A DNA stretch of 64,000 nucleotides from Rhizophagus irregularis (taxonomy: Eukaryota), in contig NC_089430.1 of the NCBI RefSeq assembly GCF_026210795.1, forward strand, positions 2,604,001 through 2,668,000. Reading direction: 5' to 3'. Every line of letters starts with the position of its first letter. The stretch's first letter is position 1. Shown piece after piece: positions 540-44,892 of the stretch. Both the position numbers and the translations under genes were made by a program. Below the pieces are notes generated by a model. The model did not search any database. It had not been told where the DNA came from and saw only the letters and a list, made by a program, of their open reading frames with translations.

Positions 540-3500
540 ATGTCAACTTACGGTCTTTGTTTTTCAACTGAAATAGGAATAAATCCTATTCCTTTACGAA
601 ATGTTATTATCGGAGCTAATAGTAAGCCGGTTTACTTGACAATTTTTTTTATTTATGATATGAAAATGATATTTCATTTAATTCTCTTTAAATATTAGTC
701 GTTGATATGATCGCTGAAGGTTCGTAGTTTGGTCAAATTATATGATATGATTTTTTTTTAAATATTTATACTATAATTCTATAATTCATCTTTAATAGTT
801 ACTATCAGACAAACTTATAAAAATGTTGAAAGAGATACTATCGAAGCATTCTATAAGTTTCCTATTTATGAAGCCGCAGCAATCTGCGAATTTGAAGCAG
901 AAATTGATGGACGAAGAAAAATAAAAGGCATCGTAAAAGAATCAAAAGAGGCCGCTAAAGAATATACTGAAGCAGTTCAGGTAATATCTAATAAATTTAA
1001 AAATGATTTAATACATTTATTTTTATATATAAGTTTAATTGTTCTTGAATTGAATAGAAAGGACATGGTGCTTATTTGTTAGAATCTGAGTCCGAAGATG
1101 TGTTTCAATGTTCTGTTGGAAATATCACATCAGGACAAACCGTGGTTATTAAAATTACATATGTTACCGAGCTTAAACATGATTCTGAATCAGAGAAAAT
1201 TCGATTTATTCTACCAACTAATATCGCTCCAAGATATGGTTCTTCAGTATATTCGTCATCTTCAAATGATGGAAAAATTCTTAAACCTGATGTTGTATCT
1301 TATTCTAATAAAGCAGATTTTTATTTAGATCTTACTGTTACTTGCAGAATGACTTCAACTATTCAAAATATTGAATCACCTTCACATAAAATTTCTACTG
1401 AAATGAATATTGATGAGAATCCCAAAATTTCTAAAATTACTTTATCCGAACAAATTACTTATTTAGAAAAAGATTTTATTCTTATGATTAAAAGTAAAGA
1501 GATTGATCAACCACGGTAAATATTTTAATTAATAATTTTGTATTTATATATATATAATTTTTTTTTTATTTTTTTTATTTTTAATATAATTATATTTTTT
1601 TTAGAGCTTTTGTTGAATACAATCCTGAAACAGAAACTAATTGTGTTATGTTGACTTTGGTTCCAAAATTCTCGTTAAATGTAATCATGTCTGAGCTAGT
1701 TTTCATTGTAGATAGGTATGTCGCCTATGTAAATAATTTTTAAAGTGAAGTTTCCATTTAATTTACAATGAATTTTTATTTTTTTGAATATGAAATAGAT
1801 CGGGATCAATGGGTATTGAACCTATGAAGAAAGCCGCACAAGCACTTGAATTGTTATTGCATTCACTTCCTGAAAATTGCTACTTTAATGTAATATCCTT
1901 TGGATCTCGTTATGATTCTCTTTTTCCAAAAAGTCAACTTTATTCTGAAAAATCGTTGTCTAAGGCTCTTAATCTTGCTCAAACAATGACTTCAAATTAT
2001 GGAGGAACAAAAATTCATAATGTATTAGAATGGGTATTTAAAAATTCAAGAGATGATATGCCAATTTCTGTATTTCTTATTACAGATGGCAGAGTTTGGG
2101 ATGCTGATGAGATTGTAGAACTTGTACGTGAAAATGAAGAAAAAAAGAAAGATGATTTACGGCTTTTTTCATTAGGAATTGGTGATTCTGTTTCTCATAA
2201 TTTAGTTGAATCTGTTGCCCGTGCTGGTAGAGGATACGCTCAATTTGTAACAAATGATGAAAGAATGGATAGAAAAGTTATTGAAATGCTGAAAAGTGCA
2301 TTAAAACCACCAATTAAGGATTATAAAATTACTTGGACTAATACAGATCTTTTGGAATTAAATGATGATAAATCGGCTATTAGCTTTATGAGTGATGAGA
2401 CAGAATCTTTACCATCTATTAAGATTCAACAAGCTCCATATATTATTCCACCAATTTATACTGGTATTCGTTTTATGGCCTATTGTATTTTGGAAAAAAA
2501 TATTGAGCCATGTAAAACTATTACATTAAAAGCTACTTCTCATGATGATCGTCCTATGGTACTTGATATTCCTTTGGATCCTGTTACCTTACAAGGTTCA
2601 AAAATTCATAGATTAGCGGCAAGAAAACTTATTCAAGATCTTGATTATAAAAAATCATTTATTCATAAACATCCTAAAAATGTTGGTAAATTTATTCCAG
2701 CTTCATTCGTTAAAGAACATATTGTTAAACTTGGCAAAACTTATAATTTAGCTTCAAAATTTACAAGGTATAATTTATTTATTTATTTTCTTTATATAAA
2801 ATTTTTAAATAATGATGATTATCTTTTTTTATTATTAGTTTTATTGCAATCGATGAAAGAAATAATGAAATTAGTGAAGTTCTAATTAAATCTCGAACAA
2901 TTCCACAAAAAAGGAATGTTCCTCAATTAGCTCCTCAATTCAGTACATTACAATCAAGCAGTAATTTTATGACAATTGGAAGGGTAAGAAGAAATGTTAA
3001 TATTTTGTATATTTAAAATAATGAAACACACTTATTAACAGTAATATTAGTTAATGAATATGAGTGATTTTTATTAAATGATCCTTGATCAATTTAAATA
3101 TTAGTTTGCTACTACTGATACTGCCATTGCTGGCCTTGCTACCACTTCAAGGATTAATATAATGGATTTAGTAAGATCGGGGTCAGTAGTTTAAGTTTTT
3201 TTTTTGATTACGCTGTAAATGAGAAATAATTAAGAAATTATTTTCAATAGAATTCGATCTCTTGTATCGGCAAAATCCGGACCAAAAGAAACAAAAGAAG
3301 CACAATCAGTATCACTACTATATAGTGAATGTGGACTAAACATTGAATCTGAATTCAATCATAAAGAATCACAAATTGGAAGCGTATTTGACGATAGTAA
3401 ATCTGAAGTCAATCATAAGGAATCACAAATTGAAAATTTATTTGGATTTTTAGAATTACAGTCATTTGATGGTAAATTCTTATTAAATGATTCGTTTTAT

Positions 3501-3788
3501 AAATTTTTTTATAAGAATGATTTAAATGATTTCATCAATTTAAAACAAGAAATTATAAAAGAAATGGGTGATATTGGTATTAAAGAAATTGAAGAAATAT
3601 TAACTACTAGTATTGCATTGGCTTATCTGGAAATAATTATATTTAAAAAATTTAAAGATGAAAGTGAGTTGTGTTACGAAAAAGCTGTTAAAGCTTTAAA
3701 GAAAATGGTTGAAGATGAAGAAAAAGAAAAACTTATTGGGGAAAAAGCTAAAGAATGGATTAAAAATTGGGTTATTAATGGCAAATGA
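540..3788 (+). CDS. VIT-vWA (VWA5A-like) protein, array copy 1, multi-exon
   Basis: ATG at 540 (MSTYGLCF). 21-nt exon 699-719 (VDMIAE). VIT-type exons (YKFPIYEAAAICEFEAEIDG; LESESEDVFQCSVGNI). MIDAS DR|SGSM is split by an intron, with GGT and TDG present. Linker exons 2839-2983 and 3105-3181, last exon 3251-3788 (LQSFDGKF...KAKEWI). Manual GT-AG splicing keeps the frame open. Confidence 0.9.
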
Positions 3789-6065: not shown

Positions 6066-9000
6066 ATGCAAATTTACGGTCTTTGTTTTATTGGGCAGGG
6101 AGTAACTCCGATTCCTTTACAAAATGTTGTCGTAGAAGCTAATGGTAAATATCTTGATTCTATAATTTTTTCTTTTAAATTGCTATTCCAATTAATTTAA
6201 TCATATATTTAAATTATTTTTAGTCGTTGATATGATCGCTGAAGGTTCGTGTTGATCAATTATAAAATACTATTGTTCATAATTCATATTTTATTTATTT
6301 TATTTTATTTATTTATTTATTTTTTTATTTACTTATTTTTTTTATAATAGTTACGATTAGCCAAACTTATAAAAACGTTGAAAAAGATACTATCGAAGCA
6401 TTCTATAAGTTTCCTATTTATGAGGCCGCAGCAATCTGCGGATTTGAAGCAGAAATCGATGGACAGAGAAAAATAAAGGGTATCGTAAAAGAATCAAAAG
6501 AGGCCGCTAAAGAATATACTGAAGCAGTTCAGGTGAAATATTTTAATAATTTTCAACGTTATTTTTTTCTGTATGTAAATGAATTAATTCTCTTTTTTTT
6601 AATTAATCAGAAGGGACATGGTGCTTATTTGTTAGAATCTGAATCCGAAGATGTGTTTCAATGTTCTGTTGGAAATATTACATCAGGACAAACTGTAATC
6701 ATAAAGATAACATATGTTACTGAACTTAAACACGATTCTGAAACGGAGAAAATTCGGTTTGTTCTACCAACTAATATCGCTCCAAGATATGGTTCTTCAG
6801 AATATTCGTCATCTTCAAATGATGGAAAGATTCTTAATCCTGATGTTGTATCTTATTCTAATAAGGCAGACTTTTATTTAGATCTTGCTGTTACTTGTAG
6901 AATGACTTCAACTATTCAAAATATTGAATCACCTTCACATAAAATTTCTACTGAAATGAATATTGATGAAAATCCTAAAATTTCCAAAGTTACTTTATCC
7001 GAACAAATTACTTATTTAGAAAAAGATTTTATTCTTGTGGTTAAAAGTAAAGACCTTAATCAACCACGGTAAACATTTTAATTAATAATTTTGCATTTAC
7101 TTTCTTTTTTCCTTATTTTAATCGTTAATCTTTTTGATATAATCTCTTTTAGAGCTTTTGTTGAGTACAATCCTGAAACGCAAACTAATTGTGTTATGTT
7201 GACTTTGGTTCCAACATTTGCGTTAAATGCAACTATGTCCGAACTAATTTTTGTCGTTGATAGGTATGATATAATTCAATTATAAGTGTATTATTAAATT
7301 CATTTCATCTTTTTTTTATTTATTTATTTTTTTTTTGAATATGAAATAGATCTGGATCAATGGGAATTGAGCCTATGAAAAAAGCTGCACAAGCTCTTGA
7401 ATTATTATTGCATTCACTTTCCGAAGATTGTTACTTTAATGTAGTATCTTTTGGATCTCGTTATGATCCTCTTTTTCCAAAGAGTCAACTTTATTCTGAA
7501 ACATCTTTATCTAAAGCTCTTAATCTTGCTCAAACAATGACTGCAAATTATGGTGGGACCGAGGTTTTTAGTGCATTAAAATGGACATTTGAAAATTCAA
7601 GGGATGATATGCCAACTTCCGTATTTTTTCTTACGGATGGCGGAGTTTGGAATGTTGATCAAATTGTAGAACTCGTACGTGAAAATGAAGAAAAAAAGAA
7701 AGATGATTTACGACTTTTTTCATTAGGAATTGGTGATTCTGTTTCTCATAATTTAGTTGAATCTATTGCTCGTGCCGGTAAAGGATATTCTCAATTTGTA
7801 ACAAATGATGAAAGAATAGATAAAAAAGTCATTGGAATGTTAAAAAATGCATTGAAATCACCAATTAAAGATTATAATGTTACCTGGGCCAATGTCGAAC
7901 CATTCGAAGAAAAAGAATTAGACATAACTCCAATGGAAGTTGATAAACCTACTATTAGTTTTATGAGTGATGATAATACGGAACCACCACCACCAACCTT
8001 AAATATATTTACAGATATTAAAGTTCAACAAGCTCCATATTTTATTCCACCAATTTATTCTGGTGTTCGTTTTATAGTCTATTGTATTTTGGAAAAAAAT
8101 ATTGAACCATGTAAAGTTATTAGTTTGAAAGCTACTTCACAAGATGGTCCTATGAAACTTGATATTCCTTTAGATCCAGTTACTCTACAAGGTTCAAAAA
8201 TTCATAGATTAGCGGCAAGAAAACTTATTCAAGACCTTAATGATAAAAAATCATTTATTCATAAACATCCTAAAAATGCTAATAAATATATTCCAGCTTC
8301 ATTTGTTGAAGAACAAATTGTTAAGCTTGGGAAAACATATAATTTAGCTTCGAAATATACAAGGTAGTGTAAATTTACTTTTATAACTTTATTACATTTA
8401 TTTCTTAATAATAATATTATACTTTTATATATTTTTTATTAGTTTTATTGCAATCGATGAAAAAAATATTGAAACAGTTGTATCTGAATCTCAAACAATT
8501 CCACAGAAAAGAATCGTTCCTCAATATGCTAATTTAAATCTTGGATTTGGACGTATGTAAAAAAAAAATTGTTTTTAATTTATTTATGTATATGTTATTA
8601 ATTAATTATTTCTATATTATAGCTACATTTTTGTAAGTATTTTTTTTTCTTTATTCAAAAAAAAAAATTATTATAAACTTTGTTTTGTATATATATTTAA
8701 AAGTACTAATTCTTCTCAATTCGGTAGTTCTGCACAACAATCTCAACAACAGCAATCTCAACAACAGTTACTTGGCCAAAGGACTATTCGAGCCCAATCC
8801 GCCATCCAGCCTATTTTATTTAGACAAACTACACAATCGACTGGTTTTGGATTTGGACAAACTCGATCAGGATTTGGAAATGGTTTTGGAATGGGGCAAA
8901 CTACACAACCGACTGGTTTTGGATTTGGACAAACTACACAACCGACTGGTTTTGGACTTGGACAAACTACACAACCGACTGGTTTTGGATTTGGACAAGC

Positions 9001-10264
9001 TACACAACCGACTGGTGGTTTTGGATTTGGACAAGCTACACAACCGACTGGTTTTGGACTTGGACAAACTACACAACCGACTGGTTTTGGATTTGGACAA
9101 GCTACACAACCGACTGGTGGTTTTGGATTTGGACAAGCTACACAACCGACTGGTGGATTTGGATTTGGACAAGCTACACAACCGACTGGTTTTGGATTTG
9201 GACAAGCTACACAACCGACTGGTGGTTTTGGATTTGGACAAGCTACACAACCGACTGGTGGATTTGGATTTGGACAAGCTACACAACCGACTGGTTTTGG
9301 ATTTGGACAAACTGCTACCCAAACTAGCCAACCTAGTTTATTTGGACAAACTGCTGCCCAAACTAGCCAACCTAGTTTATTTGGACAACCTACTAATTCT
9401 CAAACTGGTTTTGGATTTGGACAAACTGCTACCCAAACTAGCCAACCTAGTTTATTTGGACAAACTACTGCCCAAACTAGCCAACCTAGTTTATTGGGAC
9501 AACCTACTAACCAACCTAGTTTATTTGGACAACCTACTAATTCTCAAACTGGTTTTGGATTTGGACAAACTGCTGCCCAAACTAGCCAACCTAGTTTATT
9601 TGGACAACCTACTAATTCTCAAACTGGTTTTGGATTTGGACAAACTGCTACCCAAACTAGCCAACCTAGTTTATTTGGACAAACTACTGCCCAAACTAGC
9701 CAACCTAGTTTATTGGGACAACCTACTAATTCTCAAACTGGTTTTGGATTTGGTGCCCAAACTAGCCAACCTAGTTTATTGGGACAACCTACTAATTCTC
9801 AAACTGGTTTTGGATTTGATTCAACTCATCGATCAAAATTTGCATTTGGTTCATTTGCACAATCACCATCACCAATAATTAACAACTCCAATATTAATCA
9901 TAAAGAATCACAGATTGAAAATTTATTTGAATTTTTGAGATTACAATCATTTAATGGTAAATTTTTACCAAATAGATCATTTTATGAATTTTTTTATAAA
10001 GATGATTTAAGTGATTTTAATAATTTAAAACAAGAAATTGAAAAAGAATTAAGTGAATTAAGTGAAAAAGAAATTGAAGAAATATTAAGCAATTGTATTG
10101 CTATTGCTTATTTGAAAATTATTATGTTTGATAATTTTAAAGATGAGTGTGAAATGTGTTATGAAAAAGTTGAAAAAGTTTTAAAGAAAATGATTGGAAA
10201 TATAGAGAAAGAAAGGATTATTATTGAAAGAGGTGAAGAGTGGATTAAAAATTGGAGAAAGTAA
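6066..10264 (+). CDS. VIT-vWA (VWA5A-like) protein, array copy 2, with an FG-repeat linker of about 310 aa
   Basis: ATG at 6066 (MQIYGLCF), same exon layout as the other copies, intact MIDAS. Exon 8443-8552, 10-nt microexon 8623-8632 and last exon 8728-10264 splice in frame into the GQATQPTGFGF/GQTATQTSQPSLF repeats and then the shared C-terminal domain (IENLFEFLRLQSFNGKF). Confidence 0.88.
8894..9817 (+). repeat. Coding minisatellite: 12 units of 33/36 bp (GQ[A/T]TQPT(G)GFG[F/L]), then about 14 units of 30-39 bp (GQT[A/T][A/T]QTSQPSL[F/L], GQPTNSQTGFGF)
   Basis: Near-identical nucleotide units are directly visible (ggacaagctacacaaccgactggttttggattt; caaactagccaacctagtttatt), with higher-order periodicity. 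Confidence 0.95.
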
Positions 10265-13980: not shown

Positions 13981-16900
13981 ATGCAAATTTACGGACTTTG
14001 TTTTATTGTTGAACAGGAAATAAAACCGATTCCTTTACAAAATGTTACTGTTGAAGCTAATAGTAAGTTCATGTTGATTATAACTTATTTTTCAATTTTT
14101 TTTTATAATGATGTTCCAAAATTGATTAAATCCATTAATTGCCAATTTTTTTTAAAGTCGTTGATATGATCGCTGAAGGTACGTCAAATTTATATAAATG
14201 ATATTATGATTATTCATTGTGGTTTTTTTTATTTATTTTTTCTTTTTTTATTAGTTACGATCAGCCAGGCATATAAAAATATTGAAAAAGACACTATTGA
14301 AGCGCTCTATAAGTTCCCTATCTATGAAGCCGCAGCAATCTGCGGGTTTGAAGCAGAAATTGATGGTCAAAGAAAAGTAAAGGGTATCGTAAAAGAAGCA
14401 AAAGAGGCTGCGAAAGAGTATACTGAAGCAATTCAGGTAATATCAAATTTAAAATAATTTCAAAATATTATTTAATATAATTAACTTTCATTTTCTTAAA
14501 TGATTAGGAAGGACATGGTGCTTATTTGTTAGAATCTGAATCCGAAGATGTGTTTCAATGTTCTGTTGGAAATATTACATCGGAACAAACTGTAGTCATT
14601 AAGATTACATATGTTACCGAACTTAAACATGATTCTGAATCAGAAAAAATTCGATTTGTCCTACCAACTAATATCGCTCCAAGATATGGTTCTTCAGAAT
14701 ACTCGTCATCTTCAAATGATGGAAAAATTCTTAATCCTGATGTTGTATCTTATTCTGATAAAGCAGATTTTTATTTAGAACTTGCTGTTACTTGTAGAAT
14801 GACTTCAGCTATTCAAAATATTGAATCACCTTCACATAAAATTTCTACTGAAATGAATATTGACGGAAATCCTAAAATTTCTAAAATTACTTTGACCGAA
14901 CAAATTACTTATTTAGAAAAAGATTTTATTCTTGTTGTTAAGAGTAAGGACCTTGATCAACCACGGTAAATATTTCACGTAATTATTTTTTGTTTAATTA
15001 CTATAATTAAATTATTTAAATTTATTTCAGAGCTTTTGTTGAGTATGATCCTGAACTACAAACTAATTGTATTATGTTAACTTTGGTTCCAAAATTTTCA
15101 TTAAATACTACTATATCCGAATTAGTTTTTGTTGTTGATAGGTATGTTATAACTCAACTACAAATTGAAATTTTCTGTTCAATTAATAAAAAAAAATGTT
15201 TTAAACAGATCAGGATCAATGGATATTGAACCTATGAAGAAAGCCGCACAAGCACTTGAATTATTATTACGTTCCCTTCCTGAAGATTGTTATTTTAATG
15301 TAGTATCTTTTGGATCTGATTATGATTCTCTTTTTCCAAAAAGTGAACTTTACTCTGAAACATCTTTATCTAAAGCTCTTAATCTTGCTCAAACAATGAA
15401 ATCAAATTATGGGGGAACAGAAGTTTATAATGTATTAGAATGGGTATTTAAAAATTCAAGAGATGATATGCCAACTTCTATATTTCTTATTACAGATGGA
15501 GAAGTTTGGAATGTTGATCAAATTGTAGAACTTGTAAGTAAACATGAAGAAGAAAAGAACGATGATTTACGTCTTTTTTCGTTAGGAATTGGTGATTCTG
15601 TTTCTCATAATTTAGTTGAATCTGTTGCTCGTGCTGGTAAAGGATATGCTCAATTTGTAACAAATGATGAAAGAATGGATAAAAAAGTCATTGGAATGTT
15701 AAAAAATGCATTAAAACCACCAATTAAGGATTATAATATTACTTGGACTGAGGTCAATTTATTGGATGAAAAAGAATTAGATATGACTCCAATTGAAGTA
15801 GATAAACCTACTATTAGTTTTATGAGTGATGACAATATGGAACCACCATCACCACCACCAAGTGATATATTTTCTGATATTAAAGTTCAACAAGCTCCAT
15901 ATATTATTCCACCCATTTATTCTGGAGTTCGATTTATTGTCTATTGTATTTTAGAAAAAAATATTGAACCATGTAAAGTTATTACTTTAAAAGCTACTTC
16001 TCAAGATGGCCCTATGAAACTTGATATTCCTTTAGATACAGTTACTTTACAAGGTTCAAAGGTTCATAGATTAGCGGCAAGGAAACTGATTCAAGATCTT
16101 AATGATGAAAAATCATTTATTCATAAACATCCTAAAAATGCTAATAAACATATTCCAGATTCATTAGTTAAAGGACATATTGTTAAACTTGGTAAAACCT
16201 TTAATTTAGCCTCGAAATATACAAGGTATAAAATTCATTTAATTATATTTACGATTAATTTATTTTGTATATTACCTATTAATTATAATTTTTTATAGTT
16301 TCATTGCAACTGATGAGCGAAATAATGAAAGTTTATCCGAGGCTCAAATAATTCCACAGAAAAGAGAAGTCCCTCAATTAATTACATCGTATAGAACGGT
16401 ACACAATTTGAGTTCATTTAGCATGAGTTCCGTAATGGGTAAAAATTAGTATTTGTATATTTTTATTTATTTATTTTTTTTTTAAAAAAAAGAAAACAAT
16501 TAATAACATTAATTTAATTTATTCATATTCACTAAGTGCAAAGTTTCTGTATGTTTGTTTTATAATTTTATTTATTTAATGGATTGAAATAATGACACTC
16601 ACTTAAATTAATCGAATATTTATATGATTTATTAGTGGTTAGTTCAGAAGATCTAGTTGAAGAGTTAGTATACAAGTTCATTTATGTTCTTATAATATGA
16701 GGATGATAACTAATATTTTTTTTTTCAAAATTTTTTTGTTTCAAGAAGTCCACAAGCATCGCAACAGGAAGTTAATGTTATTCATCAAGAACCAAAAATT
16801 GAAAATTTATTCGAATTTTTGGGATTACAATCATTTGATGGTAAATTCTTACCTAATAAAACATTTTATGAGTTTTTTTATAAAAATTATTTAGATGGTT

Positions 16901-17157
16901 TTAATAACTTTAAACAAGAAATTGAAAAAGAATTAAGTGAATTAAGTGAAAAGGAAATTGAAGAAATATTAACTAGTTGTATTGCTATTGCTTATTTGAA
17001 AATTGTTATGTTTGATGATTTTAAAGATGAATGTGAAATGTGTTATGAAAAAGCTGAAAAAGTTTTTAAGAAAATGATTGGAAATAATGAAAAAGAAAAA
17101 ATTATTATTGAAAAAGCTGAAGAATGGATTAAAAATTGGGTCAATAATAGTGATTAA
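13981..17157 (+). CDS. VIT-vWA (VWA5A-like) protein, array copy 3
   Basis: ATG at 13981, conserved exons and MIDAS. The linker is encoded by the end of exon 16299-16438 plus microexons 16537-16548 (12 nt) and 16636-16663 (28 nt). Last exon 16746-17157 is in frame. Confidence 0.9.
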
Positions 17158-17425
17158 GGGTGATCAATCTGTTATTTGTTGTATTAGTTTTATTTTTTGT
17201 GTATTTTTTTATATTTAGTTAGTATATTAGTATACTTGTTATGATTATCTTTATATTAAATTTGAAACATGTGAATTAAATTTGATATGTTGGCCTATCG
17301 CGGATAGGATAGTCGCAGATCGAAACGTTGCATTTGCTTTTTGTATCACAAAATCGATAGTCACGTTATTAATCACTTTTTTGTGCAATGTGTGTGTGTG
17401 GATCTCTAATTTTTTTTTATCTGAT

Positions 17426-18900
17426 ATGGCTGCTATTAGAAACGAGACTGTTTTGGCTGCAATTATTAGAGCTAGTGCATTAACAGATCCTAATATTCAC
17501 AATGACATAACCAAACTATATGAATTTCGAAAACAAACACTTCTTGATGATGAATCTCTTACAGCAGATGAAAGAACGGAAGCAATAAAAAAATTAACAA
17601 TAAATTATGATCATAATAAACTTTTATTTAATGAAGGAACGAAAAGACGATGTGAAAATTGTTCTTTAGAATGTTTGGCAACGTCATATTGTGAACATTG
17701 TGTTCGAAACTATTTAAAAAATAATTTTTCAAATTGGACATCTGGAAATAGTGACATTGATGATTTAATAAAAGAATGTCAAATAAAATCATTTCGCCCA
17801 GATAAATTGATTGAATGGATACCATAGAAAAATTTACAAAATATTGAATATATGACTAAAGGTGGATGCAATAAAATTTATTCAGCAAATTGGATTAGTG
17901 AAGAATATGTCAAATGGAATTCTAAAGAACGACAATTAACATTTAAAGTAGTACTTAAAGAATTAGGAAATATTGAAGCTGCTAATAGAAGTTGGTTTGA
18001 TGAGGTTTATATCTGTTTTGAATTTATTTATAAATTTTTTTTTTTATTAATTAATAACTTATTAATATTGTATAAAATATTTATAGGCAAAATCACATTT
18101 GATATTAAGTAACAAATATACAGACTTTGTAGGATGTTGTGGTTTAACTCAAGATTCATCAAGTGGAAATTATATGCTTGTAATGCATTTATTGGATATG
18201 GATTTAAGAAAATATTTACAAAAGCATCAATGTACATGGGAAGAAAAAATACATGTAGTCTGGCATTTAATTGTGGCACTTCGTAGAATTCATTACAATG
18301 ATGCAATTCATCGAGATTTACATTCTGGAAATGTTTTATATTCACAATAGAAACTCTTTATTATAAAATTCAAAAAATGTGGCACGATATTCAAAATGGT
18401 AAATTTAATACTTCGGAATATAATGATTCGTCTCAAATTCAATCAAATTCAAATTCTAATCTATATTTGTTATCAATGAGTAAATTTTATCAATTTGAAA
18501 ATTTACCGGAACCAAAAAATGCAACTGAAGGTAAGCAAATAAGTTAATTATTTAATTTGGTAATTATTTTCCTTTATATTAATAATGTCAATTTAAATAA
18601 TTTAAATGAACAGGAGAACAAGAAGGTAAATAATTATAATATCATTTTCGTAATACGTAATTTTTTATAACCTTTCTTATAACAATTTATTTAAATATAT
18701 TAACTCTAAATAATTTTTTTATAGAATTTCCTAGCAAACCTTACGATTTTGAAATACCCAATAATAGTGAGTTTATTTGAAAATAGTAATATTCTTTTTT
18801 TTAAAAACAAAATTTCTATGCTTAATTATTTTTTATATTTTATTAGTTTGAAGATTTGTAATTCAGCAAAAAAGATCAAGATGAACTTAGATTTATTTGA
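17426..18900 (+). pseudogene. TKL-type protein kinase pseudogene (Cys-rich N-terminus)
   Basis: Paralog of the kinases at 37729 and 62108. In-frame TAG at 17825-17827 replaces the Tyr of WIPY. After HRDLHSGNVLYSQ* most of the C-lobe (DFG to APE to DxWS region) is deleted. The NLPEPKNATE tail and small tail exons are retained. Confidence 0.88.
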
Positions 18901-22479: not shown

Positions 22480-23200
22480 TATTTATAATTTTATTTATTT
22501 AACGGATTAAACAATAATATCCATGAAAAAAATCCTTAAATAAAAAAATAAAATATTAACGAAATCTTTATATAATTTATTTAGTTAGTAATTTCGGTGG
22601 AGTTAAATGAGTTAGTCCAAAATTAGTGAAAAAGCATAGGTTTGTTTATATTATAATATGAGAATTATCATTGATATGTATTATTGAAAAAATGAATTTT
22701 TTTTTCAATGTATTGTAGAAAAGATAGAAAAAAGGAATTAATGAAACTAAGAGTTTTTCTGCCAGCATCACCAGCATCATCAGTATCACATATTGAAAAT
22801 TTATCCAAATCTTTAGGATCACAATTATCCAATAATAATGAATTGTTACCAAAGAAAGTTAATGTTAATTATAAAGAGCCAAAAATTGAAAATTTATTTG
22901 AATTTTTAGGATTACAATCATTTAATGGTAAATTTTTATCAGATAAATCATTTTATGAATATTTTTATAAAAATGATTTAAATGATTTTATTAACTTAAA
23001 ACAAGAAATTGAAAAAGAAATTAAGTAAATTAAGTAAAAGAAATATTAAGTAATTGTATTGCTATTGCTTATTATGTTTGATAATTTTAAAGATGAATGT
23101 GAAATGTATTATGAAAAAGTTGAAAAAGTTTTAAAAAAAATGATTGGAAATAATGAAAAAGAAAATATTATTATTGAAAAAGCATTAAAAATTGGATTAA
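22480..23200 (+). pseudogene. 3' remnant of a VIT-vWA gene (linker plus C-terminal helical domain only)
   Basis: ...KVNVNYKEPKIENLFEFLGLQSFNGKF...KQEIEKEIK* followed by deletions and frameshifts. The upstream intron resembles the copy 3 and 4 linker introns. No VIT or vWA exons are seen upstream. Confidence 0.85.
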
Positions 23201-28125: not shown

Positions 28126-31100
28126 ATGCAAATTTACGGACTCTGCTTTGTTGTTGAACGAGAATTAAAACCAATTCCTTTACAAAATGTTGCTGTTGAA
28201 GCCAATAGTAAGTTGTTGTAATTATTTTAATTATTTTAATTATTTTTTCATTTTCGTTATAATGATATTCCCTAAATTGCAATTTTTTTTTTAGTCGTTG
28301 ATATGATCGCTGAAGGTTCGTTAAATTTATCGAATAAAAATTCTATTAGGATTATAGTTTATATAGTATTAATCTATTTTATTTTTATAGTTACGATCAG
28401 CCAGACTTACAAAAATGTTGAAAAAAATACCATTGAAGCTCTCTATAAATTTCCTATTTATGAAGCCGCAGCAATCTGCGGCTTTGAGGCGGAAATTGAT
28501 GGACAGAGAAAAGTAAAGGGTATCGTAAAAGAATCAAAAGAGGCCGCCAAAGAATATACTGAAGCAGTTCAGGTTATATCTGATAAATTTAAATAATTTC
28601 AAAGTTTATGTATATATAAGTTAAATTGATTTTCATTTTCTTGAAATGATTAGGAAGGACATGGTGCTTATTTGTTAGAATCTGAATCTGAAGATGTTTT
28701 TCAATGTTCTGTTGGAAATATTACGTCAGGACAAACCGTAGTCATGAAGATTACATATGTTACCGAACTTAAACATGATTCTGAATCTGAGAATATTCGA
28801 TTTGTTCTACCAACTAATATCGCTCCAAGATATGGTTCTTCGGAATATTCATCATCTTCAAATGATGGAAAAATTCTTAATCCTGATGTTGTGTCTTATT
28901 CTAATAAAGCAGATTTTTATTTAAATCTTGCTATTACTTGTAGAATGACTTCAACTATTCAAAATATTGAATCACCTTCACATAAAATTTCTACTGAAAT
29001 GAATATTGATGAAAATCCTAAAATATCTAAAATTACTTTAACTCAACAAACTACTTATTTAGAAAAAGATTTTATTCTTGTAGTTAAAAGTAAAGACCTT
29101 GATCAACCTCGGTAAATATTTTACGTAATTATTTTTTTATTTTTTATTTTAATATAAATAATTAAAATTCTTTATATTTCTTTCAGAGCTTTTGTTGAGT
29201 ATAATCCTGAAACAAAAACTAACTGTGTTATGTTAACTTTGGTTCCAAAACTCTCATTAAATACTACCATATCTGAACTAGTTTTTGTTGTTGATAGGTA
29301 TGATATAATTTAATTACCAAGTGAAATTTTCTGTTCAATTAATAAAAAAAAAAATTTAAAAAATTTTTTAATTAGATCGGGATCAATGAGTGTTGAACCT
29401 ATGAAAAAAGCTGCACAAGCACTTGAATTGTTATTACGCTCACTTCCTGAAGATTGTTACTTTAATGTAATTTCTTTCGGATCTCATTATGATTCTCTTT
29501 TTCCAAAAAGTCAATCCTATTCTGAAACATCTTTATCTGAAGCTCTTAATCTTGCTCAAACAATGAAATCAAACTATGGAGGAACAGAAATTTATAGTGC
29601 ATTAGAATGGGTATTTGAAAATTCAAGGGATGATATACCAACTTCTGTATTCCTTCTTACAGATGGTGAAGTTTGGAATGTTGATCAAATTGTAAGACTT
29701 GTAAGTCAAAATGAAGAAAAAAAGAAAGATGTTTTACGTCTTTTTTCATTAGGAATAGGCGATTCTGTTTCTCATAATTTAGTTGAATCTGTTGCTCGTG
29801 CTGGTAAAGGATATGCTCAATTTGTAACAAATGATGAAAGAATGGATAAAAAAGTCATTGGAATGTTAAAAAATGCATTAAAACCACCAGTTAAGGATTA
29901 TAATATTACTTGGACCAATGTTGATCTATCGGAATCAAAGGAAAAGAAAGAGTTACAAGCGGAAGTTAAATCCGCTACTAGTTTTACGAATGATAATACA
30001 GAATCACCATCACAAAGTGATATATTCATTGATACTAAAGTTCAACAAGCTCCATATATTATTCCACCTATTTATCCTGGTGTTCGATTTATTGTTTATT
30101 GTATTTTGGAAAAAAATATTGAACCACGTAAGATTATTACTTTAAAAGCTACTTCCCAAGACGGCCCTATGAAACTTGATATTCCTTTGGATCCAGTTAC
30201 TTTACAAGGTTCAAAGATTCATAGATTAGCGGCAAGGAAACTTATTCAAGATCTTAATGATGAAAAATCATTTATTCATAAACATCCTAAAAATGCTGAT
30301 AAGCATATCCCAGATTCATTAGTTAAAGAACATATTGTTAAACTTGGTAAAACTTATAATTTAGCTTCAAAATATACAAGGTATAATTGTATTAAATTAA
30401 TAGTATTTATTATAATTTAATTATATTTTTTACTTATTTTTTATATTTTTTTTATTTGTAGTTTTATTGCAATTGATGAAAGAAACAATGAAACTGTATC
30501 TGAAGCACGAACAATTCCACAGAAAAGGGAAGTTCCCCAGTTTTTTGCAGGAAAAGCTAGCTTTTTTTTAGCTTCTTCAAGTATGAATATTAGTGGTCCA
30601 GGTAAAAAAAATTGTATTATGTATTTTTTTTTTTTAAAAAAAAAGAGAAAAAATTTAACATTAATTAATTTTAATATTATAAATTAAGCGAGGAAAGCGA
30701 AAAGATCATGTACGTATACTTATTTTATAATTTATTAAAAAAAAATTTTTGAACCAAAAAAAAGATTAATCGAATCGAATATTTACATAATTTATTAGTT
30801 GCCGTTGGATTACAGCAAGAGTCGGTATACATGTTTTATTATATTATTTTAATATGAAAGGGTTATTGATATAAAATTTTTTTTTCCAATATAGTACTCC
30901 ATTGCAAGTTACGCCAGCAGCACTACAGAAAGTTAACGTTAATCATAAAGAGCCAAAAATTGAAAATTTATTCGAGTTTTTAGGATTACAATCTTTTGAT
31001 GGTAAATTCTTGCCAAATAAATCATTTTATGAATTTTTTTATAAAAATGATTTGAATGATTTCATCAATTTAAAACAAGAAATTGAAAAAGAGATTGGTA

Positions 31101-31324
31101 AGACTGATGTTGAGGAAATATTAAGTACTTGTATTGCTATTTCTTATCTGGAAATTATTATGTTTGAAAAATTTAAAGATGAAAGTGAAATGTGTCATGA
31201 AAAAGCTGAAAAAGCTTTAAAGAAAATGGTAGAAAATGAAGGAAAAGGAAAAATTATTATTGAAAAATCTAAAGAATGGATTAATAATTGGATTAATAGT
31301 GATAGCGAAAAGAAAGAAGAATGA
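28126..31324 (+). CDS. VIT-vWA (VWA5A-like) protein, array copy 4
   Basis: ATG at 28126, conserved exons and MIDAS. The linker is encoded by the end of exon 30462-30601 plus microexons 30689-30709 (21 nt) and 30799-30820 (22 nt). Last exon 30895-31324 is in frame. Confidence 0.9.
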
Positions 31325-32895
31325 ATTATATAATAGTTTTGTTCTCTTCTTTTAATAAGCAATAACGTTTATTTTTATTCATTTTATATAGTATAATATT
31401 AAATATTTTATGTTTTTTAACTGTATAATTAAAGTATTGATTTATCTTTATGCATATTGATTAAAATTATTTTTTTTTCGTAAGAATATTAAATTTGAAT
31501 AAAATAACACTAAAATAGCGAGCAAAAAAACTAAAAAAGTTTTTTGACTCTCGAGTCAAAACCACAGTGCGAGCAAAAATCTGGTTGTAATTTTGCCTGA
31601 CTCGGCCGAAATTATTATAATTTTGGCCAGCATTGCACTTAAGTCTGTTTAATTATGTCAATTTAAACCTTCATTTACTCGGTATTTACCTTTAGATAAT
31701 TGAAGCGAATCAGCCAATAAGCTTTCTAGAATAAAAAATTCCGTTTTATCATTTCCGAATAATATAAAATTTCTAACATATCAAATAAAGTACATCCCGA
31801 GATGTAGTATGTCACTTAGAAGACTATTAGCTATATATATAGTATTAGTAGTATGACACTATGTTATTATAAAAATAACAAAGGTTAAAGGCTTGTGATA
31901 AGGGTTTCGGGATTATTTCTTAGAAAAGAACTCGAACATTCGCCGAAGAAATTTTGATCTATATTTTGTTACAACTATTCCCTTATAGATATTTCGATAA
32001 TAGATTGATTCATTATTATTTCAAAAGAAGTTAATAGTGAAGGTTTTATCGAATGTGTGGAATTATTTTCTGGAATGTATACTGATTACTGAATAAATGG
32101 TATAAGTAATTTCATAGTATGCCACAGTTGGCATAGTATATCATTGGTCATTGATTTACTAATAAACATCATCGGCCGAAATTGATTTGAATCAAATTTT
32201 ACCATGTAGAGTAACAACATATTGAGGGCAGCGAAGACAGTTAACTATTTGTTTTTAGGAAAACTCCGGGTTACATTCGGACGTGGACCTCATTTTCGGA
32301 AATTTACGTTTGTCATTCGTCCTTTTCGGAGGTTTTTTTCAGTAAATTATTGAAGGTTCCTTCTTGACATAACTCATTATTATAATTGAGCAAATAAGAA
32401 GGGTATAGACTAATCTTGTATGACTTAATTAAAAAAACTGTACTGTATGTTGTGCATCCAGATTCATTCTTAATATCTCTTCTTATAAGGTTAATTCATA
32501 AACATTTTTTTTTTGTTTTGATTGTCCTATTAAAAAAACCAGTATTACGAAAATGGCGCAGATCCGCAGATGTTATTCCTTTTTTGTCTGTCGTGTACCC
32601 AAGTACAAATTAACCATATGGAAAAATTCAATTTTCCATAAAGATGATTCTACTTTCTTTTTAGAATAATTCTATTCGACTAAATAATATTACAGACATT
32701 GTTATATTATTATATGTTTTTTTTTTCCGGAATTAATTAATATTATTATCCGTTTAATCGAGATAAAAAAAAAAGTATAAATTTTGCGTGAAAAATTATA
32801 AAACTTTTTTAAAACAAAAAAGAAAAAAACAAAAGAATTTTTTTTTTTTAAGTTTCCTCCTCTTCCTTTTTTTTTTTTGATAATAATAATAAATT

Positions 32896-35254
32896 ATGTC
32901 TCAAGAAAGTGTAAAAAGAGTGATTAATAGTACCAACGTAAATACGGTGATAGAACGTGCATTAAGCATAACAGATACGACAATTAATAGTTTTGGAGCA
33001 TCAAAAGTATCAGATTCAATATCACCATTTTTACCATTAATAACAGAAGTATCAAGGTTAACATCAGATATAATTAATATTTATCAAACAGCAGAACATA
33101 ATAAAAGGATATGTGGATCATTATTATCAAGAACTACAGCCGCAGAAACCGCCGTAAAAAATTTAGAAATACGTAGATTAGAAAATGAATCATTATTTAA
33201 ATCAAAAGAATATTATAAAAATTTTCAAAGATTAGTTATTATAGTAGGTAAAATAAAAAAATTTATTGAAGAAATTTCTCAAATTAAAGGTTTAAGAAGA
33301 TTTTTAGCTGCTAATAGTATAGAAAAAGATTTTTTTGATTTAACTAATGAATTTGAAGGTTTAATGAGAATTTTAAATTTTTCTATTGCTGTTACTAATC
33401 AAATTCAAATGGAAGAAGATAAAAAAATTTTGAGTCATGATATTAAGGAAATGAATAAGGTAATTAATGAAGAAATAAGTTTCTTGTTTTTAAATACTTT
33501 TTTTTAAAAAAAAATTTCCTAATTCCTAAGATTTTTTTTTTAAAAAAAAATTATAGTATATACATGATATTGAAGGAGGTATTGCTAATGAAGTATCAGG
33601 AATTAATGCTAAATTAGATGATATTACACAATGGAATTTAGCATGGCAAAAAAAATTACTTTCAAAAAATGAGGATATCATAGCTGATGCAACTATTCCA
33701 ATGAATGAATTTTCTGATCCATCTGAAATGGTTAAACGTGGTAATAAAGTAATTAAAAAATTACGTAAAGGGGAAGAAGTAGCATTAAAGAAAAGAATTT
33801 TTGATAAAGAAGAAAAGAAACAAATTAATGATATATTGAGTCAAGTAACTATATTAAAAAAACTTAAAGAATCAAAATATATAGTAAAATTTTATGGATT
33901 TGTTAATGAGGAAGAAATAATGTATATGGTAACTGAATGGTTTGAATATGGTAATCTTAAAGAATATTATACAGATTATGGACCACTTGGTTGGCTTGAA
34001 AAATCTCAAATTGCTATTGATATTTCTCGTGGATTAACTTTTTTACATACCGTATCCATATTACATCACGATATACGTTCAGAAAATATTTTAATAACTC
34101 GTCATCGTTGTGCTAAATTAGCTAATTTTACTTTAAGTCGTGGATTTAGAGATTTTAGTACTCATGTTAAAGCAACTATTGATAATGTAAGATGGATGGC
34201 TCCTGAAAAATTAAAGGATCATAATAATCCTTATACTGCAAAATGTGAAATTTATAGTTTTGGTATGGTATTATGGGAAATTGCTGAAGGAAAATTACCA
34301 TTTCAAAGGGAAAATGATATAGTACAAATAAGAAATCTTGTAGTTAATCAAAAATATAGACCATCATTCAGTCTTGGTGTACCTAATGAATGGGTTAAAA
34401 TTGCATATCAAGGTATTATAAATCATGATTTTTATTATCTAAAATTTTGATAAAATATATAATTATATAAATACTATATATTTTTTTTTATTATTTAGCT
34501 ATGCAAGATAGTCCAAGCGCAAGACCTTCTTTAAAAGACATATTTATGACATTAAATGATGTTTATCAAATTCATAAACCAAAGAAAACTCCGACTTCTT
34601 CCCCAATTTGTAGTCCTTCTCAATCAGATTTACCAGATCCTGATGATTTAGAATTATCTTTAGATTTAAGTGTAATTGATATTGATACATTGAGTATTAA
34701 AGAAGCTATTGCAGAACATAAGAAGAATGGAGATAGATTAAAAGCATGGAAAGCCTTTTGTCAACACTCTGAACTTGATGATATGCTTGCCAAGTAAGTA
34801 ACCTGATACTTACTTTTTTTTAAAATCATATAAATACTAATATTTATATATTTTTAAATTTAGATATTGGAAAGGATATTATTTATATTATGATTTATGT
34901 CCAATAGAAGATCCTGAAGATAAAAATGCAAAACAATTAAGAGTTAAACAATCTGTAGAATATTTTAAAGAAGCAGCAGATTTTGGTTTAGCAGATGCTC
35001 AATTGAGATATGGACATTGTTTATGGTCAGGTGAAGCCATTAAAAGGGATATTAAAGAATCCATAAGATATTTTCAAATGTCAGCCGATAATGGTAATCA
35101 TACTGCTATGTATAATATTGGTAATATATTATATAATGGTATTGGTGCTAATAAAGATGAAGAGAAAGGTAGTAATTATCTTAGGTTAGCCGCTTTATCG
35201 GGTCAACCTAAAGCTATTGCTATGTGTAAAACTAAAGGTATTAAATTAGCTTGA
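32896..35254 (+). CDS. MLKL-like N-terminal helical bundle + TKL (pseudo)kinase + Sel1-like repeats
   Basis: Exon 1 (32896-33459) reads PFLPLITEVSRLTSDIINIYQTAEHNKRICGSLLSR...KIKKFIEEISQ, an MLKL-NTD/HeLo-like pattern. The kinase has VALK, HHDIRSEN, NFT in place of DFG, and WMAPE. The C-terminus has Sel1 repeats (AADFGLADAQLRYG; SADNGNHTAMYNIG). Confidence 0.85.
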
Positions 35255-35819: not shown

Positions 35820-37729
35820 ATTATTTCAAAGAATTTCGATTTTTGTTCTGCTTCATCTAACAAATTACCGGTATGATAGATAAATAATATTAATATAATA
35901 TTACGTATAAAAGTAATCAAACTTTAAAATTATACCTTCGGAAGTGATTTCCAAATCTAAATAAAAATTTGAATTGTTATATTAATACAAAGATTATAAA
36001 TATAATATAAATATAATATTAATATATTATAATTAAACTTACTACGAGTATGAGGTATATTGAAGTCATATGGTCTGCTATGAAATGCTACAAAAAAATA
36101 AAATTTTTTGTTAAATTTACATTTACATATATATATTAATGTTAATGTTATAAAAAAAAATAATAATAATTACGTTCTAGTTCTGTTAAAAAAAAAGAAT
36201 TTTTTAATTTTTAAATATGTAGTTAAAAATGGTTAAAAGTAATAAAAGATAATAAATATTATAATTACCTCCAATCGCATTTACTGGTTCTGGTAAGTTT
36301 TTAAATCGATGAAGTTTACTACTGGTTGATAATGAATGTAACTTAGAACTTGAACTAGGTTGAAAATTTCGGGGAAACAATAAAATAGGAGCTAATAAAA
36401 ATTCAGGCTCAGTGTAAGAGTTTTTCCACATTTTTTCAATCTCATTAAAAAGAGTATCAATATCGGGTCTTTGTAAGGGATCAGCATCTAAACATTTTTT
36501 CATTAATTCTTTATATTCTGATGGAATCCCTGATATGTTTCGTGGTCTCAAACCATTAACTATACCCATTGCAAGATAAAAATCATGTTTACAATTATTA
36601 AAAGGTGTTTGTTCCGATGCAATTTCCCACATGAGCATACCAAAACTGTATATATCAGATTTAAAAGTACTTTCTTTTCTAATTAAAACTTCAGGTGCTA
36701 TGTAAGGAAGATTTCCATATACACTGTTTAGTGATTTATCAGCAGGTCCACAAAATCCGAAATCACTTATATACCAATAATTTTTGGATTTCAGATATAG
36801 AATGTTTCCGGAATGCAGATCTCTATGAATCGCATTATTACTATGAATACTATGAAGCGCATCTACAATATCATAAGATATTTTTATTTTTTCTTTCCAC
36901 GTAAGCGGATGATGATTATTTAAATATTTTTTTAAATTCGTATCCATTAATTGCATCACAAGCATATAAACTCCATTTTTTGGCTCTTGGGTTAACCCAT
37001 AACATTTAACGATCTCAGTACTTTTGTTCCCAATAGTTAAATGAACTTTTGCCTATAAATATATATATAATATTTATAAATTAGTCATTAGTTAAAATGT
37101 ATTTTTACATATAAAGTAAATTGAAATAATATGACCTCTTCGAACCAACTTCTATTAGCATTTAAAACATTTATCAATGTTTTAAGTATTACTTTATGAG
37201 ATCCGGTTCTTTTTAATTGCTTATTGACTTGATCCCACTCGATGTATTGTCCGTCAATCCAATCTGCTGTATAAATTTCAGAACAACCGCCTCTAGTCAA
37301 ATATTCAATATTTTGTAGTTTTTCGTATGGTATCCATTCAAGTATTTTGTTTGGACGAAATGATTCTTCTTGACATCTTTGTAATAAACTATCAATATCA
37401 TTATTATTAGATGTCCAATTCGAAAAATTATTTTTCAAAAAGATTCGAATACAATGTTCACAATATAATGTGGCTAAACATTCTTTTTGACATTCTTTAC
37501 ACAATCTTTTTGTTCCCGTATTGTAAAGTACTTTAAAATAATCGTAATCCTTAGTCAATATTTTTATAGCTTCGATTTTTTCATTTTCATTAAGAGTTTC
37601 ATCGTTAAGAACCGTTTCCTTTTTAAATTCATAACGGCTATCTATGTTTTTGTATTTTTCAAAATCCGTCAAAGAATCCGCTTTATCGAGCGCTGCATAA
37701 ACTAAATTTTTTCTAATAATACCAGCCAT
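35820..37729 (-). CDS. TKL-type protein kinase with Cys-rich (CxxC) N-terminus; 3' end approximate
   Basis: GGCSEIY, VILK, HRDLHSGN, DFG, YIAPE and SDIYSFG are all intact. Small tail exons include a 9-nt exon at 36174-36182. Confidence 0.9.
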
Positions 37730-44485: not shown

Positions 44486-44892
44486 GGCACAAAAAATTAA
44501 ATTTCAAATCTTTTTATTTGGTAAATTATCTATTGATGAAAATAACGACTTTTGTATGCGACTAATCTGTACCATTTTTTCCAAAATAAGCCTCATATTT
44601 AGCCGAGATAGTTATACATATATATATATAGAGCAAAAACGAACCATAGACAATCTTTTTGAGATTAATTGAAAGCTCACCCTGCATTAGAGTTATACCA
44701 TAGTTGCACAATTTCACAATAAGTAAATATATAAATATTTGAATCGGGATTAATGGCGTAAAAAAAAAAAGTTCATGGAGTAACAGTTTCTAACCCCTTT
44801 CGGAATGCTGGCTTTCATTTACGAGTTCGTTAATGACTAATATTAAACTAAATAAACATGGGTACCGGCTACATCCCAATTTTTTGCAAAAT

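Follow-up and report, generated by a model that had tools for sequence, protein, structure and literature searches.

Among the intracellular VIT-vWA proteins, Dictyostelium Vwa1 acts together with an F-box protein in development, within a ubiquitin-ligase pathway of its host (PMC10539598); the same account describes ITIH1 as having no C-terminal domain (CTD) of the VWA5A type. ITIH4 contains a protease-susceptible bait region (residues 633–713) and holds the proteases that cut it (PMC7793589); a β-propeller has been described for its C-terminal part (PMC11538491). In PARP4, exon 30 encodes a disordered segment of about 360 residues late in the protein, which is under positive selection and has been read as a host-pathogen interface (PMC4038475). 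Nup98, a nucleoporin with FG repeats, is a convergent viral target (PMC9168619).

The gene described here, copy 2 of a VWA5A-like family, lies with its siblings in a window of 64,000 nucleotides, the whole stretch of DNA that was analysed (Table 1). Between its core and its CTD it carries a nucleoporin-like FG array, and the same slot in relatives holds look-alikes of other proteins of the cell.

Copy 2 and its FG linker

The nine-exon GT-AG model of copy 2 translates exactly into P0001, an annotated Rhizophagus irregularis VWA5A-like protein. Pfam places a VIT region first and then a vWA domain inside the hybrid domain, and the CTD can be aligned across fungal and other relatives, as expected of a VWA5A-like protein; the C-terminus is of the VWA5A type and not that of an ITIH heavy chain, and the nearest Atlas clusters are VWA5A-like. 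The MIDAS residues are intact (DRSGS, YGGTE and LTDG motifs). By alignment and model the first core strand begins at about residue 16–20, which leaves little room for a signal peptide.

Table 1. Features of copy 2 and its siblings, in window positions
Feature	Position	Strand	Basis or remark
Copy 2 gene, VWA5A-like VIT-vWA protein, 1173 aa	6066..10264	+	nine exons
Copy 2 exons 1–5	6066-6144, 6224-6244, 6351-6532, 6611-7068, 7153-7263	+	
Copy 2 exons 6–9	7350-8363, 8443-8552, 8623-8632, 8728-10264	+	
VIT / hybrid β-sandwich exons	6066..7263	+	Pfam VIT, partial match on exon 4
vWA domain, hybrid part and three-helix bundle	7350..8363	+	Pfam VWA_3, E 2e-22
Exon with last core strand and linker start	8443..8552	+	RNA-read joints 8361>8441 and 8552>
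10-nt micro-exon, sets FG reading frame	8623..8632	+	letters between joint sides in all four runs
Gln-rich linker lead-in	8729..8839	+	translation; length varies among records
FG block A, 33/36-bp units, GFGFG cores	8840..9310	+	TRF period 33 and 69
FG block B, mixed SLFGQ / SLLGQ and GFGFG units	9311..9817	+	TRF periods 39, 75, 114
Conserved helical C-terminal domain (CTD) of family	9896..10261	+	66–80% identity to three sibling copies
Copy 1, short linker without FG; first exons not delimited	1058..3788	+	ORFs; P0029/P0066 100% on exons
Copy 3, short linker without FG; first exons not delimited	14508..17157	+	ORFs; P0013 match
Broken fifth-copy remnant, CTD only, stops and frame changes	22810..23200	+	tblastn, translation
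Copy 4, short linker without FG; first exons not delimited	28654..31324	+	ORFs; P0022 match

In a search of PDB sequences, residues 16–467 of P0001 align to PARP4 621–1062 and also to ITIH4; PARP4 far outscores any ITIH and is the best match (E 1e-48). One long alignment of the copy 2 protein reaches PARP4 1643. The CTD has no direct match to the vault-binding domain of PARP4, and PARP4 is absent among the CTD fold matches listed; homology between these two domains is suggested only. The modelled structure matches ITIH1 (E 9e-33), and the end of the core falls, in a weak alignment, near residue 590 of ITIH4. In position the linker thereby corresponds to the bait region of ITIH4, and likewise to the fast-evolving disordered exon of PARP4.

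The linker has pLDDT below 50 at residues 648–841 of the modelled orthologue. The best fold match of the CTD is to residues 728–842 of chain 4t in 9e5c (Z 10.3, rmsd 3.1, 106 aligned), a trypanosome homologue that is a component of the flagellar doublet; Foldseek and profile searches of the PDB with the CTD gave no match. For the R. clarus orthologue the predicted complex of CTD and core scored 0.74 and the best control 0.00, at least 90% of contacts agreed between runs and the partner pLDDT was at least 86; the mark set for this score lets through 51 of 78 solved pairs and 2 of 108 mismatched ones, and the pass may come from the predictor's memory of 9e5c. The CTD is thus predicted to dock on the vWA helices, and with the CTD docked in this way the linker would be closed into a loop that projects from the protein.

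That the repeat is spliced in frame, as a sequence-only reading of this DNA had proposed, is borne out by RNA reads that join 8552 to 8728 through the micro-exon. This joint is supported by 7 reads in run X21 and 8 in run X22, raw RNA runs chosen by species label, and occurs in one contig each of X2 and X3, whose RNA nature is guessed. The copy 2 exons between 6073 and 8926 are covered by one contig of X2, 2177 nt long. Both X21 and X22 show read depth above zero over the repeat and the CTD, no single read or listed contig spanning the whole repeat, and no joint that skips the repeat is present among those listed. Four truncated annotations (P0121, P0124, P0125 and P0127) stop before the repeat and lack the micro-exon, for which intron retention may account. 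The +1 frame of the repeat also lacks stops over 413 aa and has Leu/Asp-rich repeats; since the one splice listed leads into the FG frame, this +1 frame was rejected as coding and is treated as a by-product of the repeat's codons. An assembly artefact was likewise set aside as the main explanation: the same unit order is found in two named records (contigs of 5.7 and 6.1 Mb, either of which may be the source of the window), and related arrays in other records and species and the RNA coverage also disfavour it. The unit numbers in P0003 and P0240, which lie on short contigs, may be collapsed.

The last exon encodes 17 GFG[F/L]G and 9 SL[F/L]GQ motifs, in agreement with an earlier count of about 26 repeats, and 43 FG dipeptides in total. 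The motifs follow each other in the linker at a mean distance of 12.4 aa. The array had been described as free of charge throughout, which is correct for 317 aa without D, E, K or R (8867–9817; G 22, Q 19, T 19, F 13, P 9 and S 7%) but not for the flanks at 8728–8866 and 9818–9860. Nucleoporin_FG matches the repeat with E 2.2e-12 and is the only Pfam family above the cut-off on the last exon, the remaining protein being VIT-vWA. No frame elsewhere in the window exceeds 3 FG per 100 aa, and the linkers of the three sibling copies contain no recognised mimic. The array is therefore confined to copy 2 within the window, where the proteins taken for copies 1, 3 and 4 have 1–2 FG in total, but not within the species, where P0080, another paralogue with an FG linker, contains 31 FG. 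Copy 4 is followed at 1.6 kb by a gene for an MLKL-like kinase, in which MLKL_N scores below the cut-off; as the window is rich in kinase genes, this neighbour may be there by chance.

Pairwise comparison of units with the same peptide shows differences at 6 of 729 nt, a single codon serves all Gln (CAA 59/59) and all Phe (TTT 40/40; core ratios 20:5 and 22:12), and P0002 has a longer Gln run than the lead-in of the window. The near-identity of the units indicates recent slippage. Recent local expansion, as first proposed, agrees with the recent homogenisation of these units and with their varying number among records; the accompanying rejection of an old nucleoporin capture does not follow, as capture of a seed is compatible with such units. 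Used as a protein query, the FG repeat returned 6 proteins, five of them from the VIT-vWA gene family and none a nucleoporin; the repeat alone gave no usable match in the Atlas, nor did a 21-nt repeat pattern match metagenome contigs.

Linkers of related proteins

Orthologues in R. diaphanus and R. clarus contain the same motifs. A nucleoporin-like module in a non-nucleoporin is what the array, its Pfam match and its VIT-vWA host protein indicate, but its description as newly arisen fails as far as it meant unique. On sequence comparison the FG motifs predate the split of R. clarus and R. irregularis, both motif classes being retained between the two with different spacers. A second, separate and older FG-linker group spans Glomerales and Gigasporaceae.

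The search of other fungi for VIT-vWA proteins with FG repeats, proposed at the outset, found FG/GLFG linkers recurrently through the family. At least 8 FG are present in the linkers of 20 of 144 cluster representatives. The 144 linkers together contain 539 FG, against 141 ± 12 in composition shuffles (3.8-fold), and 163 [G/S]LFG, against 1.8; the reverse dipeptide GF occurs 176 times, against 142, which makes the FG excess order-specific. The counts over the representatives, here and for the mimics below, are biased upward, since the motifs were defined after the linkers had been viewed and the search profile included FG-rich seeds. In a quick tree FG linkers and H3/H4 linkers form separate clades among paralogues without them, and a single FG clade is rejected (p-AU 0.0004). 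In Fusarium, FG is commonly found together with a copy of the Ran tail.

Database searches with other linkers matched a piece of P0030 to histone H3 1–29 (E 6.4e-9), a piece of P0108 to the C-terminal tail of yeast Gsp1/Ran (E 2.7e-7) and a piece of P0197 to the R-SNARE motif of VAMP4 (E 1.8e-6) and Ykt6 (E 8e-6). These copies of H3, Ran and SNARE are 28–39 residues long. Pfam Synaptobrevin is above the cut-off in P0197 and P0244, and CBFB_NFYA (NF-YA) in P0272; Ribosomal_60s in P0342 (E 5e-4), Spt5_N in P0281 (E 0.012) and RNA_pol_Rpb1_R in P0286 (E 0.019) are below it, and P0108 matches the uL10/P0 C-tail of the ribosomal P-stalk weakly (E 0.36). Copies of the P-stalk tail, the Pol II heptad, H4 and Spt5 are accordingly suggested more weakly. 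Other pieces may be copies of Ras switch I and Flo8/Som1; the Ras-like piece had no match in the PDB.

A recognised mimic or 8 or more FG is present in 55 of the 144 representatives, 19 of which combine two or more classes, and 89 linkers have no recognised mimic; in the larger core the same motif types occur in one representative. P0314 combines H3, H4, P-stalk and Pol II heptad pieces, and P0356 FG, H3 and others. Each piece is an incomplete copy set inside the chain and lacks the free end that its model has; the pieces often stand several in a row and turn over between sister paralogues. In the literature searched, mainly open-access main texts, no description of FG or mimic linkers in VIT-vWA proteins was found.

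A proposed bait loop and its alternatives

Since the same slot in relatives holds look-alikes of H3, Ran, ribosomal proteins and SNAREs, the loop may well be bait for intruder enzymes that attack these proteins, and we give an even chance to the FG linker of copy 2 being a bait that mimics self, mounted on a trap or sensor of ITIH type. The expressed FG cassette in the hypervariable linker of this VWA5A/PARP4-type protein would imitate the cell's own FG-nucleoporins. An effector of a virus, an endobacterium or a mycoparasite that attacks these nucleoporins, for example a protease, would cut or grip the loop. The CTD clamp would thereby open, leaving the metal-dependent vWA site to retain the attacker or to trigger a signal, by analogy with ITIH4. 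The bait repertoire would be renewed by tandem duplication and linker turnover, with slippage adding FG sites. Against this stand the extracellular location of ITIH4, its place in another clade and the missing CTD of its relative ITIH1, the non-immune roles of the intracellular relatives studied (Vwa1 and the trypanosome homologue), the 89 of 144 representative linkers and the three siblings in which no mimic is recognised, and the fact that slippage alone, with no need of selection, can lengthen FG arrays. Extended to the whole family, the proposal has somewhat less than an even chance: fungal VWA5A-like proteins would be intracellular immune traps, each paralogue showing on a loop clamped to its vWA domain renewable copies of the host segments under attack (FG-nucleoporin repeats, histone tails, Pol II heptads, Ran tail, ribosomal stalk tail and R-SNARE motif), their linkers a catalogue of pathogen targets and the fast-evolving PARP4 exon the animal form of the bait.

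Rather unlikely, though the best placed of the alternatives, are docking handles, where FG would recruit karyopherins or place the protein at or through pores, and the H3, Ran, P-stalk or SNARE pieces of other paralogues would engage host readers as adaptors or competitors. The composition, charge and spacing of the array are like those of cohesive FG domains, Vwa1 acts in a ubiquitin-ligase pathway of its host (PMC10539598), and the FG and Ran-tail pairing in Fusarium joins two elements of nuclear transport. However, P0314 and P0356 each combine pieces from unrelated compartments, and the pieces are partial, internal, without free ends and turned over between sister paralogues.

With a considerably smaller probability, the array is a low-complexity expansion tolerated under little constraint, its nucleoporin likeness incidental. 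The nearly identical DNA units and their variable number agree with this, as do the three siblings without an array and the G/S/F-rich linkers common in the family. The order-specific FG excess and the two motif classes that R. clarus and R. irregularis share despite different spacers speak against it, as do the H3, Ran and SNARE copies, of which slippage cannot be the origin at such lengths.

Least probable is a loop that responds, with no foreign attacker, to damage or to stray enzymes of the cell itself, such as proteases leaked from the vacuole or those of cell death, or that switches by forming condensates or amyloid, which would suit the uncharged Q/T/G/F make-up and the MLKL-like kinase gene, itself possibly a chance neighbour, but leaves the charged histone and P-stalk tails in the same slot unexplained. 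Of the initial readings of the array, the decoy is the one favoured here; targeting to the nuclear pore complex, phase separation and prion behaviour account for none of the non-FG mimics.

If the bait proposal is true, the intracellular VIT-vWA family, which is eukaryote-wide, gains a testable mechanism, and fungi a decoy-type immune layer beside NLRs. Each linker would then name a host target of microbes attacking fungi such as the mycorrhizal symbionts of most land plants, and the positive selection on exon 30 of PARP4 would receive a concrete reading. Even with docking handles, a family that repeatedly borrows histone, Ran, ribosome, SNARE and nucleoporin handles was not found described in the literature, mainly open-access main texts.

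Comparison with known systems

Copy 2 is similar to the intracellular proteins of clade B2, human VWA5A (BCSC-1) and Dictyostelium Vwa1, in its VIT-hybrid-vWA core, its CTD and its lineage-specific amplification; the available part of the clade's description reports no self-mimic linker, whereas the linker of copy 2 is a 430-aa FG array (PMC10539598). With ITIH4 it shares the core fold, the MIDAS residues and a long variable disordered segment just after the core. ITIH4 is secreted, belongs to another clade and has a proline-rich bait that is not described as a mimic, and bait-triggered trapping is established for ITIH4 only. PARP4 and copy 2 both have a disordered variable segment late in the protein, but the BRCT and PARP catalytic domains of PARP4 are absent from P0001, which starts at the VIT region.

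The array itself is like those of Nup98/Nup116-type and Nsp1-type nucleoporins, with SLFG and FxFG-like motifs set roughly 12 residues apart and charge-free spacers. In contrast to FG nucleoporins, copy 2 has no nucleoporin anchor, GLEBS or autoprotease domain, and its array is set in a protein from a different family.

Plant NLRs with integrated decoys and the protease tripwires NLRP1 and CARD8 have a copy of a pathogen's target built into the sensor, and copy 2 would likewise carry a copy of a host target inside a putative sensor. Those decoys sit on NLR or death-fold scaffolds, whereas here short disordered self pieces occupy a loop of an ITIH-like scaffold.

The FG repeat of copy 2 and the surrounding cluster

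The fungal DNA of the window is rich in AT and its genes have introns; four VIT-vWA genes lie in it, together with the broken remnant of another. The last exon of copy 2, the VWA5A-like gene with the FG repeat, encodes 17 GFG[F/L]G and 9 SL[F/L]GQ motifs, lacks charged residues over 317 amino acids and contains Nucleoporin_FG above the Pfam cut-off (E 2.2e-12), which bears out the roughly 26 repeats and the long charge-free stretch of the sequence-only reading. Its proposal that the repeat is spliced in frame is likewise confirmed: in raw poly(A) RNA, 7 reads of one run and 8 of another connect position 8552 to 8728 by way of a micro-exon of 10 nt, and the translated nine-exon model is identical over its whole length to P0001, an annotated protein of R. 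irregularis. The same two runs also have reads across the FG repeat and over the C-terminal domain (CTD). No single read spans the FG array because read length is 150 nt, and transcripts skipping the repeat, which would have spoken against the proposal, are represented by no splice joint listed in the reads of the two runs over copy 2. The residues of MIDAS, the metal-dependent site of the vWA domain, are intact. Use of the open +1 frame that overlaps the FG exon would need micro-exon skipping and an acceptor at 8703, and no such splice is listed.

FG units with identical peptides differ at 6 of 729 nucleotides, from which recent slippage is clear, in agreement with the suggested recent local expansion; the first unit may still have been captured as a seed. 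About half of the RNA reads of runs X21 and X22 at 8845 and 8935 (span 8831–8943) differ in their letters and continue into a different FG repeat, with Lys/Arg-containing units such as FGTTKPSGFG and PAAGGFGFGQATT (read by hand). Their source is either a separate FG gene, which could be a nucleoporin gene and a candidate donor, or an allele that differs from all seven of the annotated versions compared.

In copies 3 and 4, FG-less siblings of copy 2, the linkers appear by eye to be made of micro-exons, so that the variable slot between the VIT-vWA core and the CTD would be modular at the exon level. The fifth-copy remnant indicates that genes of the cluster are both gained and lost. The gene with the MLKL_N-like start possibly has a cell-death or signalling role, and the tyrosine-kinase-like genes are typical of expanded kinase families.

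Features of the window (window positions)
Feature	Position	Remarks
Open +1 frame, 413 aa	8637-9878	Leu/Asp-rich repeats; overlaps copy 2 FG exon
Charge-free stretch	8867-9817	copy 2 last exon
Copy 3 linker	16437-16750	micro-exons of 12 and 28 nt; by eye against annotated protein P0013
Fifth VIT-vWA copy	22810-23200	broken remnant, CTD only
Copy 4 linker	30600-30900	built from micro-exons; by eye against annotated protein P0022
MLKL_N-like start, kinase domain, Sel1 repeats	32893-35254	1.6 kb after copy 4; MLKL_N E 9e-4, below cut-off
Tyrosine-kinase-like genes	36204-37816, 42926-44503, 62102-63722	several
Related N-terminal fragment	17231-17827	
Patatin-like phospholipase gene	45734-48381	ordinary-looking
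Atg22-like transporter gene	56162-57208	ordinary-looking

Spread of FG linkers in the family

The copy 2 vWA exon as query retrieved 171 longer proteins, 120 of which were listed. Among the matches listed, the same two FG motif classes occur in linkers of R. irregularis (26–44 FG per linker), R. diaphanus (20) and R. clarus (16–19), and unit orders vary between the R. irregularis records. A second group with different FG linkers comprises R. irregularis P0076–80 and proteins of R. clarus, Glomus, Funneliformis, Gigaspora, Cetraspora and Racocetra. In relatives from Fusarium the repeats are of the GGGLFG type, and Pfam flags many of them. The combination of VIT, vWA and FG, to be sought in other fungi, is found in R. 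diaphanus, R. clarus, the second group and Fusarium. An Atlas search with P0001 also returned one VIT-vWA look-alike cluster that is 43% viral, mostly Nucleocytoviricota.

In a quick core tree of 57 hand-chosen rows from two homologue searches, the copy-2 group is placed among FG-less tandem paralogues, away from the older FG group, and a single FG clade is rejected (p-AU 0.0004, for 30 of the 57 rows and a group named after the first tree was seen). The simplest reading of these sequences is that FG linkers would have been gained independently in two groups, less simple possibilities being that the ancestor already had an FG linker which was lost many times, or that paralogues have converted one another.

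A family census covered the best 150 of 9,688 representatives at E 1e-30 or better, with both linker boundaries found in 144. At least eight FG are present in 20 of these linkers and at least five in 47, shares that lean upward because the search profile included FG-rich seeds; FG is 3.8-fold over composition shuffles and the excess is order-specific.

Other look-alikes of host-protein segments in the linker

Linkers of the Rhizophagus paralogues P0030, P0032, P0034, P0036 and P0037 contain H4-tail-like and H3-tail-like pieces, that of P0030 matching histone H3 1–29 in the database (E 6.4e-9), and P0314 matches histone H4 weakly (best E 0.1). In Fusarium P0108, GLFG repeats are followed by a copy of the Ran/Gsp1 C-tail (E 2.7e-7) and a P-stalk-like end (E 0.36 against uL10); P0197 has half of an R-SNARE motif (E 1.8e-6). 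Several such classes stand in tandem within single linkers. Pfam, applied to 22 relatives chosen for their motifs, gives Synaptobrevin (2), NF-YA (1) and Nucleoporin_FG (1) above the cut-off, Nucleoporin_FG (3) and Ribosomal_60s, Spt5_N and Rpb1 repeat (1 each) below it, and no mimic family in the remainder of the 22.

By motif, the 144 linkers contain H3 (14), P-stalk (12), Flo8/Som1-like (8), Pol II heptad (7), Ran (5), SNARE (5), Ras-like (4), Spt5 (4), H4 (2) and NF-YA (1), the Ras switch I and Flo8/Som1 labels being putative. Shuffle means are at most 0.5 and the cores give one hit, a contrast with shuffles that is inflated because the motifs were drawn up after linker inspection; the independent part of the evidence is the database matches. 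A mimic or at least eight FG occurs in 55 of the 144 linkers, and 89 are without a recognised mimic. The FG-less Rhizophagus linkers of P0038, P0029 and P0006 have short, conserved-looking amphipathic stretches, which could be unrecognised mimics. In the main text of open papers, searches found no account of linkers with FG repeats or with other self-mimics in the VIT-vWA family.

Protein anatomy and possible function

For the R. clarus orthologue, AlphaFold2 models the core and CTD with confidence, and pLDDT is below 50 at 648–841. The model matches the structures of ITIH1 and of a flagellar VIT-vWA protein from trypanosomes. With the C-terminal part of the latter the CTD alone aligns at Z 10.3 (106 residues aligned at rmsd 3.1; the next match has Z 7.5), which is below 13, the tool's safe level for helical folds. 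Core and CTD as two chains reach a complex score of 0.74 against 0.00 for the best control, a pass that may reflect memorisation, since both chains come from a single protein and a similar structure has been solved. Among solved pairs 51 of 78 reach the mark, among mismatched ones 2 of 108. Runs agree in at least 90% of contacts, with partner pLDDT of at least 86. The predicted CTD contacts are vWA residues 298–309, 332–341 and 441–449, and the last vWA helix is among the helices the model puts in contact. Docked in this way, the CTD would close the linker into a loop. In integrin I domains this helix is coupled to MIDAS affinity.

The most likely reading, with about an even chance, is by analogy that the copy 2 FG linker works as an ITIH4-like bait, a decoy for intruders' enzymes, in a VWA5A-like family member. 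The loop would gather partial, internal copies of attacked segments from unrelated compartments, with turnover between sister genes, and this mixture and turnover suit a bait better than one housekeeping role. Against it are the linkers without a recognised mimic, which are the majority, a homologue that is a structural flagellar component, and Vwa1, which acts in Dictyostelium development (PMC10539598). The mimics may instead form a docking handle, a possible but doubtful reading; that the FG array, with its recently slipped units, is a neutral expansion is improbable, and a self-damage sensor or condensate switch is less probable still.

Pathogens target histone tails, SNAREs and Pol II heptads. 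Several viruses cleave or bind Nup98 (PMC9168619), and a ribosome-inactivating toxin is recruited by P-stalk proteins (PMC8941211). Cleavage of ITIH4 falls within a variable region, 633–713, that is disordered, and the protease is then held via MIDAS (PMC7793589, PMC11538491); exon 30 of PARP4 is disordered and under recurrent positive selection (PMC4038475). The fungal linker lies at the same place after the core as these two segments, the ITIH4 part of the alignment being weak.
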